64,000 nt of DNA. Source: Escherichia coli O127:H6 str. E2348/69 (GTDB lineage Bacteria > Pseudomonadota > Gammaproteobacteria > Enterobacterales > Enterobacteriaceae). The notes beneath the pieces were generated by a model that saw only the letters and a program-made list of their open reading frames with translations, did no database searches and was not told the origin of the DNA. The DNA lies in the NCBI RefSeq assembly GCF_000026545.1, contig NC_011601.1, one strand, 5' to 3'. Of this stretch, positions 1-40,094 are shown piece after piece (position 1 is the stretch's first letter; every line of letters starts with the position of its first letter). The translations under genes were made by a program, and so were the position numbers.

Positions 1-2375
1 GTAATATTAAGGAGCAGATTGCCGTTCTGAAGGGCAGTCTGCTGTTGTCACGTATCCTGTACCAGCAACAACAAACACTCCCCTCGGCAGATGAACTGGA
101 AAACATGACCAACCGCATCGCGGATTTGCGTCTCGAACAGTTTGAAGTCAACCAGCAGCGTGACGCGCTGTTCCAGAGCGATGCGTTCGTCAGCAAACTG
201 GAAGAAGGTCACACCAACGAAGTCAACAGCGAAGTTCACGATGCATTATTGCAAGTAGTTGATATGCGTCGCGAATTGCTGGATCAGCTTAACAAACAGT
301 TGGGTAACCAGCTGATGATGGCCATTAACCTGCAAATCAACCAGCAGCAGTTAATGAGTGTGTCGAAAAACCTGAAATCCATCCTGACGCAGCAAATTTT
401 TTGGGTGAACAGTAACCGCCCGATGGACTGGGACTGGATTAAAGCGTTCCCGCAAACGCTGAAAGATGAATTTAAGTCGATGAAAATCACGGTGAACTGG
501 GAAAAAGCCTGGCCCGCCGTATTCATCGCCTTCCTCGCTGGTTTGCCGCTGCTGTTGATTGCCGGGCTGATCCACTGGCGTCTGGGCTGGCTGAAAGCGT
601 ATCAACAAAAACTGGCTTCCGCTGTGGGTTCCCTGCGTAACGACAGCCAGCTCAACACACCAAAAGCGATCCTTATCGACCTGATCCGCGCACTGCCGGT
701 GTGCCTGATTATTCTCGCTGTCGGCCTGATTCTGCTGACTATGCAGCTCAATATCAGCGAGTTATTGTGGTCGTTCAGCAAAAAACTGGCGATTTTCTGG
801 CTGGTATTTGGCCTGTGCTGGAAAGTGCTGGAGAAAAATGGTGTTGCCGTGCGTCACTTTGGTATGCCGGAACAGCAGACCAGCCACTGGCGTCGGCAAA
901 TTGTCCGCATCAGCCTCGCGTTGCTGCCGATCCATTTCTGGTCTGTGGTGGCAGAACTCTCCCCGCTGCATTTGATGGATGATGTGCTGGGGCAGGCGAT
1001 GATTTTCTTCAACCTGCTGCTGATTGCCTTCCTGGTGTGGCCGATGTGCCGCGAAAGCTGGCGTGATAAAGAGTCGCACACCATGCGACTGGTCACCATT
1101 ACCGTGCTGTCGATTATCCCGATTGCGTTGATGGTGCTGACCGCCACGGGTTACTTCTACACCACGCTGCGCCTCTCCGGGCGTTGGATTGAAACCGTTT
1201 ATTTGGTGATCATCTGGAACCTGCTGTACCAGACGGTATTGCGCGGCTTAAGCGTAGCGGCGCGGCGTATCGCCTGGCGTCGTGCACTGGCGCGTCGGCA
1301 GAATCTGGTGAAAGAGGGCGCAGAAGGTGCCGAACCGCCGGAAGAACCCACCATTGCGCTGGAGCAGGTTAACCAGCAGACGCTGCGTATTACCATGTTG
1401 CTGATGTTTGCGCTGTTCGGTGTCATGTTCTGGGCAATTTGGTCTGATTTGATCACCGTGTTCAGCTATCTCGACAGCATTACGCTCTGGCATTACAACG
1501 CTACTGAAGCTGGTGCTGCGGTGGTGAAAAACGTCACCATGGGCAGTCTGTTGTTTGCGATTATCGCCTCAATGGTGGCCTGGGCGTTGATTCGCAACCT
1601 GCCTGGTTTGCTGGAAGTGCTGGTGCTCTCGCGACTGAATATGCGCCAGGGCGCGTCGTATGCCATTACTACCATCCTTAACTACATCATTATTGCCGTT
1701 GGTGCGATGACGGTGTTCGGATCGCTGGGCGTCTCGTGGGATAAACTCCAGTGGCTGGCGGCAGCATTATCCGTAGGTCTTGGTTTTGGTTTACAAGAGA
1801 TCTTCGGTAACTTCGTTTCCGGTTTGATCATTCTGTTCGAACGTCCGGTGCGCATAGGCGACACGGTAACCATTGGTAGCTTCTCGGGTACGGTCAGCAA
1901 GATCCGTATTCGTGCGACAACGATTACCGATTTCGATCGCAAAGAAGTGATTATCCCGAACAAAGCGTTTGTTACCGAGCGTCTGATCAACTGGTCGTTG
2001 ACTGACACGACTACGCGTCTGGTGATCCGTCTCGGCGTAGCCTATGGCTCCGATCTGGAAAAAGTGCGTAAAGTGTTGCTGAAGGCGGCGACTGAGCACC
2101 CAAGGGTGATGCACGAACCAATGCCGGAAGTCTTCTTTACGGCATTTGGTGCCAGCACGTTGGATCATGAGCTGCGTCTGTATGTGCGTGAACTGCGTGA
2201 CCGTAGCCGTACTGTCGATGAGCTGAACCGTACTATCGATCAGCTGTGCCGTGAAAACGACATCAACATTGCCTTTAACCAGCTTGAAGTGCATCTGCAC
2301 AACGAGAAGGGCGATGAAGTGACGGAAGTGAAACGCGACTACAAAGGCGACGATCCGACGCCAGCGGTAGGGTAA
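1..2375 (+). CDS. mscK: Mechanosensitive K+-regulated channel MscK (KefA), C-terminal part; 5' end lies upstream of the window
   Basis: ORF 45..2375 is open in frame back to position 1; multi-pass membrane region followed by MscS-like C-terminal domain; recognised from memory. Confidence 0.85.
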   Translation, partial: NIKEQIAVLKGSLLLSRILYQQQQTLPSADELENMTNRIADLRLEQFEVNQQRDALFQSDAFVSKLEEGHTNEVNSEVHDALLQVVDMRRELLDQLNKQLGNQLMMAINLQINQQQLMSVSKNLKSILTQQIFWVNSNRPMDWDWIKAFPQTLKDEFKSMKITVNWEKAWPAVFIAFLAGLPLLLIAGLIHWRLGWLKAYQQKLASAVGSLRNDSQLNTPKAILIDLIRALPVCLIILAVGLILLTMQLNISELLWSFSKKLAIFWLVFGLCWKVLEKNGVAVRHFGMPEQQTSHWRRQIVRISLALLPIHFWSVVAELSPLHLMDDVLGQAMIFFNLLLIAFLVWPMCRESWRDKESHTMRLVTITVLSIIPIALMVLTATGYFYTTLRLSGRWIETVYLVIIWNLLYQTVLRGLSVAARRIAWRRALARRQNLVKEGAEGAEPPEEPTIALEQVNQQTLRITMLLMFALFGVMFWAIWSDLITVFSYLDSITLWHYNATEAGAAVVKNVTMGSLLFAIIASMVAWALIRNLPGLLEVLVLSRLNMRQGASYAITTILNYIIIAVGAMTVFGSLGVSWDKLQWLAAALSVGLGFGLQEIFGNFVSGLIILFERPVRIGDTVTIGSFSGTVSKIRIRATTITDFDRKEVIIPNKAFVTERLINWSLTDTTTRLVIRLGVAYGSDLEKVRKVLLKAATEHPRVMHEPMPEVFFTAFGASTLDHELRLYVRELRDRSRTVDELNRTIDQLCRENDINIAFNQLEVHLHNEKGDEVTEVKRDYKGDDPTPAVG

Positions 2376-2383
2376 TAACCAAA

Positions 2384-2577
2384 GGGGGCGACATTTAGTT
2401 GCCCCGAGATTACTAACAAAGTGCGCGTTGTTCATGCCGGATGCGGCGTGACCGCCTTATCCGGCCTACGAAACCGCAAGAATTCAATATATTGCAGGAG
2501 CGGTGTAGGCCTGATAAGCGTAGCGCATCAGGCAGTTTTGCGTTTGCCCACAATCTTAGGGGACATTTAGCGGCCCC
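2384..2577. repeat. REP/BIME palindromic unit pair in the mscK-ybaM intergenic region
   Basis: gccggatgcggcgtgaccgccttatccggcctac and taggcctgataagcgtagcgcatcaggca, typical enterobacterial REP sequences. Confidence 0.7.
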
Positions 2578-2586
2578 ATTTATTTC

Positions 2587-2748
2587 TCACTTTTCCGCCT
2601 CATCATCGCGCGTTAATTTCTTTTCATAATCGCGTTTTACAATATCCAGCGCGCGCAGTACGGTGCGGGCTGGGATCTGATTTTCTTCCAGCAGCACAAT
2701 CAAATCGACGGCCAGTTTGACATCGTCAGGGGCATTTTCCAGTGACAT
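2587..2748 (-). CDS. ybaM: Small conserved protein YbaM (53 aa)
   Basis: Hand-translated minus-strand [56 protein letters not shown], directly upstream of priC; too short for the ORF track. Confidence 0.7.
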
Positions 2749-38289: not shown

Positions 38290-38400
<111 letters not shown>

Positions 38401-38498
38401 CAGTGTGCATTTTGGCAATAAATATGAAACCAACTGTCATGTCGGTTTTTTTAAAGGCCGAAGGTGGTAAACCTTCGGCCTTAGCTACGTTTCCTCAG

Positions 38499-38582
38499 TT
38501 ATTCAATAAATTGACGGATCAGTTCTAGCAGCGCGATTAGCGCCTTAAGAACGATGAGAACTTTATCGAGAAAAGTTTTCAT
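38499..38582 (-). CDS. Putative 27-aa amphipathic micro-protein (MKTFLDKVLIVLKALIALLELIRQFIE)
   Basis: Hand-translated; AAGGGAG Shine-Dalgarno 6 nt upstream of the ATG; followed downstream by a perfect 10-bp-stem hairpin (about 38456-38480). Confidence 0.35.
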   Translation of the reverse strand: MKTFLDKVLIVLKALIALLELIRQFIE

Positions 38583-38656
38583 CCGTTGCTCCCTTAAGGG
38601 AGAAAGACAATCACAGCTTACCCTTACGTTGCCTGTAACTATGATTTTCTTCATGT

Positions 38657-39958
38657 GCTAGATGAGGACTGCCTCTCTCCAAATTAGAGCACCAGAATCA
38701 GCACCACCTGTATCCTGACCAGGACTTAAAAGTACTTTTCCGCACTGCGGTAATCCCTTGAGGCAGTATCACTACTAGCGTCGGGATTGTATCGCCAACA
38801 TAGCTGTTGTGTAAGTTCACAGAGATATTGCAATTGCCTCCGGATAAGTAAGGGGAGATTGCACTATGCAAATGCAGCATCTGATGGTTGGCTATCCTAA
38901 GTACTACCAAACGGCCGATTATGCGTTGAGGCTTTCAGTGATGGCTGATATAGCAACAATGAGAATGAAGGCTCTGCACTTCTGGGATAAACACGGTATT
39001 TCTGCAGCTTCTGAAGCCTTTGGCGTGTCCTGCCGCACGCTTTACTGGTGGCGTCAGTTACTGAACAAGGAAGGACCTGAGGGGCTAATCCCGCACAGTA
39101 AGGCACCTCTGGTGCGACGAAAAAAACACTGGCATCCCGATGTGCTGAAAGAGATTCGACGCCTCAGGACAGAGCTGCCGAACCTCGGTAAAGAGCAGAT
39201 TTTTGTTCGCCTGAAGCCCTGGTGCGAACAGCGCTATCTGGCCTGTCCGAGTGTTTCCACCATCGGCAGAATGATCGCTGCCGCACATGATAAAATGCGG
39301 ATGATACCTGTGCGTCTGGGATCGCGGGGGAAGGCACTGCTTGTCAAAAAGCGGTCTGCCAAACCCCGCAGGCCAAAGCACTACCGCCCGGTAAAGACAG
39401 GTGAGCTCATTGGGATGGACGCCATTGAGCTCAGAATGGGCGAACTGCGTCGCTATGTCATCACCATGATCGACGAATGCAGCAATTACGCGCTGGCGCT
39501 GGCTGTGCCGTCACTCAACAGTGATATCGTCAATCACTTCTTCAGCCGCGCAGCCCGGTTGTTCCCGGTCGGTATCAGCCAGATAATCACAGATAACGGA
39601 AAAGAGTTCCTGGGAAACTTCGACAAAACGCTGCAGGAAGCCGCTATCAAACACCTCTGGACCTATCCCTACACGCCAAAAATGAACGCTATCTGTGAAC
39701 GTTTTAACCGGACGTTAAGAGAGCAGTTTATTGAATTTAATGAGATTTTACTCTTTGAAGATCTGGCGCTATTTAACCAGAAGCTGGCGGAATATCTGGT
39801 GCTGTATAACAGCAAAAGACCCCACAAGGCGCTCGCACTAATGACGCCCGTGGAATATATTTTAAAAGAGAATAAAAATTGCAATATGTGGTGGACCCAT
39901 ACAGCTGTTTGAATATGTAGGCATCCTGACTTATAATTCACTTGCTAGATGAGGACTG
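38657..39958 (+). mobile_element. Putative insertion sequence carrying one DDE transposase gene (IS481-like architecture); ends uncertain
   Basis: Transposase ORF bracketed by a 16-bp direct repeat tgctagatgaggactg at about 38657-38672 and 39943-39958; occupies the position where K-12 has the rhsD element. Confidence 0.45.
38866..39912 (+). CDS. DDE transposase, N-terminal HTH plus integrase-core (rve) domain, 348 aa
   Basis: ORF track; catalytic D (GMDAIE), D (ITDNGKEF) and E (ICERFNRT) with 35-residue D-to-E spacing. Confidence 0.7.
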   Translation: MQMQHLMVGYPKYYQTADYALRLSVMADIATMRMKALHFWDKHGISAASEAFGVSCRTLYWWRQLLNKEGPEGLIPHSKAPLVRRKKHWHPDVLKEIRRLRTELPNLGKEQIFVRLKPWCEQRYLACPSVSTIGRMIAAAHDKMRMIPVRLGSRGKALLVKKRSAKPRRPKHYRPVKTGELIGMDAIELRMGELRRYVITMIDECSNYALALAVPSLNSDIVNHFFSRAARLFPVGISQIITDNGKEFLGNFDKTLQEAAIKHLWTYPYTPKMNAICERFNRTLREQFIEFNEILLFEDLALFNQKLAEYLVLYNSKRPHKALALMTPVEYILKENKNCNMWWTHTAV

Positions 39959-40094
39959 TTTCATTTCTGCCCGGAACCACCAAGTCTTGGGCGGAAAAAA
40001 TAAAAAAACCGACTGTCATGTCGGTTTTTTTATATCTGTATTCTGGTGCAACCATTCTGTTCTCACGACAATCGCCGTTTCAGAATACCGCCCA

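Follow-up and report, generated by a model that had tools for sequence, protein, structure and literature searches.

Stem-loop repeats around a BIME-1 element between mscK and rsmS as a probable duplication of one terminator hairpin

Introduction

REP/BIME repeats occur in ~600 copies and make up ~1% of the E. coli genome. By definition a BIME-1 has two palindromic units, a Y and a Z1, that are inverted with respect to each other and separated by a long conserved linker (PMC3333891); its presence varies among isolates (PMC1187871). A single-copy Y1 HUH transposase acting in trans has been proposed to mobilise REP doublets (PMC3333891, PMC2817692, PMC3337134). The mechanism by which REP/BIME repeats spread is described as unknown, and the proposed transposase should leave no duplication (PMC3333891).

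In E. coli E2348/69 the convergent genes mscK and rsmS (ybaM) are separated by a REP pair that is bracketed by two near-identical hairpin strings. The locus raises the question of how such a bracket arises. An earlier reading of the sequence alone had offered two answers, a footprint of REP mobilisation or simply the two convergent terminators of the neighboring genes. We examined the element, its termini, its flanks at other sites, and alleles with and without it.

Results

A complete BIME-1 abuts two copies of a hairpin

The window is the whole stretch of DNA that was analysed, 64,000 nucleotides; its positions 2200-2760, used as a query, match E. coli E2348/69 at 100%. The spacer between mscK and rsmS is 211 bp long in the window. 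The left hairpin copy, M1, lies 8 nt from the mscK stop codon, and the right copy, M2, 9 nt from that of rsmS (Table 1). Both strings were found as the sequence-only reading had quoted them, on either side of a REP pair that consists, again as described, of a Y-type and a Z1-type unit in inverted orientation. The coordinates given for M1 hold, and those for M2 are one base off, its true start being 2559 and not 2558.

Table 1. Features of the mscK-rsmS spacer and its borders, in window positions
Feature	Position	Strand	Remarks
mscK CDS, 3' part	45..2375	+	stop codon 2373-2375; in the ORF list; annotated as mscK in E2348/69 and K-12
M1, left hairpin copy	2384..2405	.	GGGGGCGACATTTAGTTGCCCC; 8-bp stem, 5-nt loop, well preserved
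BIME-1 left outer arm (A-type motif)	2406..2434	+	GAGATTACTAACAAAGTGCGCGTTGTTCA; aligns to 30-site consensus TCAGATTGCTGACAAAGTGCGCTTTGTTCA
Y-type REP (palindromic unit)	2435..2469	+	1 mismatch to the search pattern
BIME-1 L linker	2470..2504	+	core TCAATATATTGCA exact in >100 other BIME-1 copies
IHF-like site within the L linker	2482..2494	+	ATTCAATATATTG; 1 mismatch to WATCAANNNNTTR; a sequence match alone
Z1-type REP, inverted relative to the Y REP	2505..2534	+	0 mismatches to the Z1 pattern
BIME-1 right outer arm (B-type motif)	2535..2558	+	GTTTTGCGTTTGCCCACAATCTTA; aligns to consensus ATTTTGCGTTTGTCATCAGTCTCA; imperfect inverted repeat of the left arm
M2, right hairpin copy	2559..2577	.	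GGGGACATTTAGCGGCCCC; degraded by a deletion in the 5' arm
T-rich tract	2578..2596	+	ATTTATTTCTCACTTTTCC; overlaps the rsmS stop codon; matches CCCTTTATTTTTTAC of the single-hairpin allele
rsmS (ybaM) CDS	2587..2748	-	ORF list and annotation; convergent with mscK

The interval between the copies, 2406-2558, is a complete 153-bp BIME-1, in the order A-arm, Y REP, L linker, Z1 REP and B-arm. One Y-type and one Z1-type unit stand in inverted orientation around a 35-nt conserved L linker with an IHF-like site. The conserved motifs outside the palindromic units, A and B, could both be aligned to the 30-site consensus described below, and the element is extragenic and present as a single unit at the 3' ends of two convergent genes. 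The search patterns for the Y and Z1 REPs were consensus sequences, and the motif names A and B are those that we gave to the outer arms. A search of Rfam gave only sub-threshold naRNA4/ES036 matches, reflecting the REP sequence. BIME-1 linkers are described as carrying an IHF site (PMC3333891).

To place the ends of the element, we used 120 loci in metagenome contigs found with an exact linker/Z1 pattern, a sample that is not an unbiased census. They collapse to 30 distinct genomic sites, a second BIME-1 copy of the window included. The consensus reads TCAGATTGCTGACAAAGTGCGCTTTGTTCA, Y REP, linker, Z1 REP, ATTTTGCGTTTGTCATCAGTCTCA, and column conservation drops from ~0.7-0.9 to ~0.3-0.4 right at the arm ends. 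Thus, M1 and M2 abut the termini of BIME-1, with gaps of 0 nt. The termini themselves, TCAGATTG...CAGTCTCA, are constant at all sites. The outer arms form imperfect inverted repeats, complementary at 13/16 positions in the consensus and more weakly, at 9/16, in the window copy. As single-stranded DNA the whole BIME-1 folds into one long hairpin that pairs arms and REPs (-41.7 kcal/mol, z -4.1).

A further insertion was seen at this locus in E. coli strain 600468, whose contig carries an IS621 (IS110-family) transposase gene between mscK and rsmS (L004, 1915-2895); its match to the window breaks off within the Z1 REP, at position 2508 of the window.

A repeat search returned M1 and M2 as a 19-nt direct repeat with 84% identity (16/19), 172 nt apart, and an alignment with a 3-nt gap gives 17 matches and 2 mismatches. 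The 9-mer GACATTTAG, common to both copies, has no further occurrence in the 64 kb (expected 0.42). M1 folds into a strong 8-bp hairpin (-15.6 kcal/mol, z -4.6), and its stem is maintained despite changes on both arms in K-12, E. albertii and strain E69. The M2 hairpin is degraded and folds no better than shuffled sequence (-6.9 kcal/mol, z ~0); in E. coli it has lost part of its 5' arm, and a fuller version, GGGACGGCATCTAGCCACCCC, is found in strain E69. A scan with a terminator consensus called no terminator at M1 or at M2. M1 lacks a U-tract on the + strand, CUUUGG being all that it has on the - strand, and the weak stem of M2 is followed by the T-rich tract.

Alleles without BIME-1 hold a single hairpin

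The sequence-only reading had proposed a comparison with genomes that lack the REP at this site. The occupied allele is present in ~3,880 of ~5,426 complete E. coli genomes, and a synthetic empty-site query, from which the element and M2 had been removed, is covered in 5,227. Therefore, ~1,350 E. coli genomes carry an allele that is 170 bp shorter. In these REP-less genomes the spacer is 38 bp long and contains exactly one hairpin, AAAGGGCGACAGTGATGCCGCCCTTTATTTTTT, built as a classical bidirectional terminator with an A-tract, a GC-rich stem and a T-tract. The T-rich tract that follows M2 in the window reads as the downstream half of this original bidirectional terminator.

The short allele differs from the window by more than the insert. 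Comparison of L001-L003 with window positions 2376-2640 showed ~8% divergence over ~100 bp that include the 3' end of rsmS, and the C-terminus of RsmS is QSDETSQSE in the short allele versus TRDDEAEK in the window; the adjacent coding sequence is nearly identical to that of the window. The short allele may represent an old haplotype or an import. A query joining the left flank, M1 and the right flank had no single-piece E. coli match above 92.4%, and so the diverged short allele is the only E. coli allele without BIME-1; a single hairpin of the long-allele type was seen in no E. coli genome. For the polarity of the change at mscK-rsmS we rely on outgroups and on the parallel with other loci.

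We compared the spacer across 80 species, with one genome per species. Directly behind the stop codon of mscK, a single GGGGCGGC-N-GCCGCCCC hairpin is present in Raoultella, in Klebsiella and in some Citrobacter, Enterobacter and Kosakonia-like genomes. E. albertii shows the same M1-BIME-1-M2 arrangement as the window, indicating that the insertion predates the split of E. coli and E. albertii.

Strain E69 (L009, ~2100-2339), which represents a separate species cluster, has kept both hairpins and both outer arms of BIME-1, and its Y-linker-Z1 core is replaced by a ~150-bp boxC-like palindrome, CCCCTCGCCCC...GGGGAGAGGGCTAGGGTGAGGGG, that none of the 5,426 E. coli genomes contains. Formally, this strain presents both hairpins without the REP, which the sequence-only reading had said would imply independent terminators. 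We rejected it as such a case, since both BIME-1 arms remain and the site is thus a modified occupied site and not a naive one.

The length of the mscK-rsmS spacer ranges from 0 to 1,171 bp across the 80 species (L010-L086). Inside it are various REP types or CCCTCTCCC/GGGAGAGGG repeats, which extend over the stop codon of rsmS. Salmonella arizonae and diarizonae, three Klebsiella species (including K. pneumoniae), Trabulsiella and some Citrobacter have spacers of ~0.9-1.2 kb.

The bracket recurs at other BIME-1 sites with other hairpins

At each of the 30 sites we aligned the 36 nt to the left of the element with the 36 nt to its right. As controls, each left flank was paired with the right flanks of different BIME-1 sites (n=870), giving scores with a mean of 5.7, a 99th percentile of 10 and a maximum of 11. 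The mscK-rsmS flanks score 13, above all 870 controls. Flanking direct repeats that reach the 99th percentile (score of at least 10) are present at 10/30 sites, eight of which exceed the control maximum. At all 10 scoring sites the repeats are palindromic stem-loops 0-6 nt from the ends of the element, and their sequence is different at each site.

At 21/30 sites the element has a strong hairpin (-8 kcal/mol or better) directly against one end or both, compared with 7/30 control flanks, which were taken at a distance of 60-90 nt (Mann-Whitney p=2.6e-5). A clear two-sided duplication is missing in about two thirds of the sample, decay being a plausible explanation, and many of these sites have a one-sided hairpin. 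Two of the one-sided sites, cysM and ybiT/ybiU, were considered for comparison with an empty site and set aside; their alleles differ by larger rearrangements and are too complex for it.

The two copies of a pair do not fold alike. The copy beside the A-arm, at the Y-REP end, folds better than the copy at the B-arm/Z1 end in 10/10 duplicated sites (binomial p=0.002), and near-equal folding of both was seen only in a perfect, recent insertion in E. albertii. One site, L106, has a direct repeat of at least 33 nt (TTGCTTTTGGCGAAAAAA...CCCGCAGAGCGGG) and a largely replaced B-arm, an exception to the 20-23-bp pattern reported next.

One hairpin becomes two at three loci with empty alleles

We compared empty and occupied alleles of BIME-1 at other loci. 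Between rutG and ymdF the empty allele is 174 bp shorter and carries one ACCGCCGGGGTTACCGGCGGTG; in the occupied allele ACCGCCGGGGTTACCGGCGGTG is followed by a 153-bp BIME-1 and then by ACCACCGGGTAACCGGCGGTG. This occupied allele is found in 1,734 E. coli genomes, among them a strain of the K-12 serotype (O16:H48) and BL21(DE3). Between ysgA and metE the empty E. coli allele has one CCGGGTGGTATTACCACCCGG, and an E. albertii contig has two copies around the element. The site is empty in all E. coli among the matches listed, and 0/5,425 genomes cover 80% of the occupied query. At fbp, E. coli has one hairpin and no element, whereas E. albertii has a perfect 23/23 repeat, AAACGCCGGAGCAATCCGGCGTT, around it. 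The occupied ysgA-metE and fbp alleles come from the same E. albertii assembly, to which contigs L098, L107 and L108 all belong; L098 is 99.2% identical to E. albertii. At all three loci the duplication takes in the whole stem-loop (20-23 bp), with its junctions at both feet of the stem.

A fourth locus, katE-chbG, was tried as an empty-site test and proved uninformative, its BIME-less allele being a replaced segment.

A single terminator hairpin as the probable origin of the bracket

We suggest that BIME-1, on inserting, duplicated a whole terminator stem-loop as its target site and that the bracket is the result. This view is based on the single hairpin in BIME-less alleles and other genera, on the 10/30 bracketed sites and on the three pairs of empty and occupied alleles, and we put its probability at roughly 0.8. 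The suspicion that the bracket is a footprint of REP mobilisation thereby gains weight from the three other BIME-1 loci at which one hairpin becomes two.

The ancestral mscK-rsmS spacer would have held one bidirectional intrinsic terminator composed of an A-tract, a ~21-nt GC-rich stem-loop and a T-tract. The 153-bp BIME-1 would have entered at the foot of the stem-loop and the stem-loop would have been duplicated, so that M1 came to flank the A-arm and M2 the B-arm. We infer two nicks, one per strand, at opposite feet of the palindrome, either in B-form DNA cut about two helical turns apart or in an extruded cruciform whose feet lie side by side. Next the element would be joined at its ends, leaving two single-stranded hairpin gaps to be filled. 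A cruciform target would make the length of the duplication follow that of the palindrome; as the observed duplications are all 20-23 bp, a stagger defined by structure and a fixed ruler of ~21 bp fit equally.

After insertion the left copy would retain only the A-tract and the right copy only the T-tract, so that each convergent transcript would reach a hairpin with a U-tract only past BIME-1. Both transcripts are thus predicted to gain the element in their 3' UTRs, that of mscK as well as that of rsmS. M1 would have been kept as a stable hairpin while M2 decays. The ancestral single hairpin would resemble any bidirectional Rho-independent terminator, in contrast to the copies left by the insertion, each of which keeps one tract.

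Weighing of other explanations

M1 and M2 might be independent convergent terminators of mscK and rsmS, alike by chance or by convergence. The genes do converge, each copy lies within 9 nt of a stop codon, and a T-rich tract follows M2. Nevertheless, the stems and loops of the two copies are paralogous, with GACATTTAG in common and a flank score that no control reaches, M1 is without a U-tract on the + strand, and M2 barely folds. Furthermore, BIME-less E. coli alleles and other genera have one hairpin where this explanation, the second of the two offered by the sequence-only reading, needs two, and the bracket is repeated at other BIME-1 sites with different hairpins. We consider independent terminators highly improbable. 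Even less credence is due to the idea that the hairpin is part of the mobile unit, travels with BIME-1 and lands near a similar hairpin. Nothing more than its adjacency to the element speaks for this; the hairpin differs from site to site, matches the local empty allele, and lies beyond the arms, where conservation across sites stops.

The order of events might also have been reversed, slippage or unequal exchange first giving a tandem pair of terminators, between which BIME-1 inserted later. Palindromes are prone to slippage, and the polarity at mscK-rsmS is indirect. However, the same two-step accident would be needed at at least 10 independent sites, with the repeats at the termini of the element every time, and no tandem hairpins free of an insert were seen at mscK-rsmS, rutG-ymdF, ysgA-metE or fbp, making this order very unlikely. 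In another scheme the target drives the process: an extruded palindrome is cut by a structure-specific nuclease, repair captures or copies BIME-1, and the arms are filled in. This would suit the fact that the whole stem-loop is always the duplicated unit, and in the window a duplicated terminator hairpin also surrounds a different insert, a dinQ-like module, although a strain without that module lacks both hairpin copies. Since the ends of the element, TCAGATTG...CAGTCTCA, are constant, which points to defined end processing and not to random capture, we regard such break repair as the weaker alternative to a target-site duplication made by BIME-1 insertion, and as unlikely.

Discussion

The bracketed element at mscK-rsmS is the same as published BIME-1 (RIP or RIB) in composition, in its size of ~140-150 bp, in being a single copy and in its position between convergent genes. 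The published descriptions that we searched omit the 20-23-bp duplication of the target hairpin seen here. A BIME-1 that duplicates a whole hairpin also bears on how REP doublets move, and several known systems offer a comparison.

The single-strand mechanism of the IS200/IS605 type is the model invoked for RAYT/TnpA-REP and REP doublets (PMC3333891, PMC2817692), and the family has neither terminal inverted repeats nor flanking direct repeats (PMC3333891). BIME-1 is like REPIN/RAYT doublets in folding, as a REP doublet, into one long single-stranded hairpin. It differs from IS200/IS605 in its inverted outer arms (13/16 in the consensus) and in its long direct repeats, for insertion is not free of repeats: repeats of 20-23 bp flank 10/30 sites, and three insertions were verified against empty alleles. 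The hairpin duplication, as read from these alleles, argues against a single-strand mechanism of this type.

BIME-1 resembles MITEs in being short, multicopy and without an ORF, in its TIR-like arms, in the direct repeats of its target and in its long stem-loop. The arms are complementary at 13/16 positions in the consensus and 9/16 in the window copy, and a target-site duplication is seen against the empty site at rutG-ymdF, ysgA-metE and fbp, the empty allele at mscK-rsmS being diverged. A review states that REPs show no MITE signatures (PMC3184786). In BIME-1 a whole palindrome of 20-23 bp is duplicated, a difference from MITEs. MITEs make short duplications whose length is fixed, typically at 2-10 bp. 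We know of no parent IS with ends that match those of BIME-1, of the TCAGATTGCTGACAAA type. IS186, of the IS4 family, is autonomous, encodes a DDE transposase and inserts in palindromes of a G-run, N and a C-run with duplications of ~6-12 bp and variable length. BIME-1 is similar in duplicating a GC-rich palindromic target as a unit, and different in the length of the duplication and in its unrelated ends.

The integration of CRISPR spacers is formally the same reaction as the one that we propose. IHF takes part in it in E. coli. Staggered nicks at both ends of the palindromic repeat duplicate the repeat (PMC4081107), and in Cas1-Cas2 and casposon integration, as would be the case for BIME-1, stagger, joining and gap filling place a copy on both sides of the insert. 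By this analogy the bracket favours staggered cuts at both feet of the palindrome. The differences are a 153-bp insert with fixed ends, scattered and unrelated terminators as targets, and the lack of an array, of a leader and of evidence for Cas1. Instead of an array of identical repeats with a leader and ~32-bp spacers, there are two copies of a hairpin specific to the site around a 153-bp insert.

If the duplication is indeed made at insertion, BIME-1 might spread by concerted staggered integration that recognises both feet of a terminator palindrome and duplicates all of its stem-loop, in a MITE-like manner with a target duplication defined by structure, and by a reaction resembling Cas1- or DDE-type integration rather than by peel-and-paste, with a signature previously unreported; we put this forward tentatively and think it somewhat less probable than its opposite. 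To our knowledge, no enzyme makes such a hairpin duplication. A whole-hairpin duplication that is reproducible constrains the reaction to two cuts, one per foot of the palindrome. It also provides a simple read-out for an assay, in which a cloned bidirectional terminator should turn into two copies around a 153-bp insert. Where genomes are annotated, a pair of near-identical terminators flanking a REP doublet should be treated as a single ancestral one.

BIME-1 has been described before, and so has its presence/absence polymorphism (PMC1187871, PMC3333891); the insertion signature is possibly a new variant of known transposition footprints. A search of full-text literature, with the 1990s BIME papers outside its scope, found no description of a hairpin-sized target duplication by BIME-1. 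Papers of the 1990s reportedly described the "excision of a whole BIME-1", and a duplication would most likely be mentioned in Bachellier et al. 1997 (Genetics) or in Boccard & Prentki 1993 (EMBO J). We consider the odds that an earlier published notice of the signature exists to be about even.

A duplicated hairpin at the transposase locus, and a second BIME-1 in the window

The sequence-only reading had drawn a parallel between mscK-rsmS and a transposase locus further along the window. At 38414-40033 a terminator hairpin, AAAAAACCGACTGTCATGTCGGTTTTTTT, is indeed duplicated around an insert, a dinQ-like type I toxin module in which an IS481-family transposase gene (38866-39912) is nested. 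The parallel holds only in part: strain PSUO2 (L213) is without the module and without both hairpin copies, and we rejected the locus as a second case of the same process. The dinQ-like module is found without the IS in L214. Next to it, at 38298-38424, the window carries its second BIME-1, in minus orientation, whose B-arm is cut short at a distance of 17 nt from the stop codon of ybbP and whose A-arm abuts the left copy of the AAAAAACCGACTGTCATGTCGGTTTTTTT hairpin.
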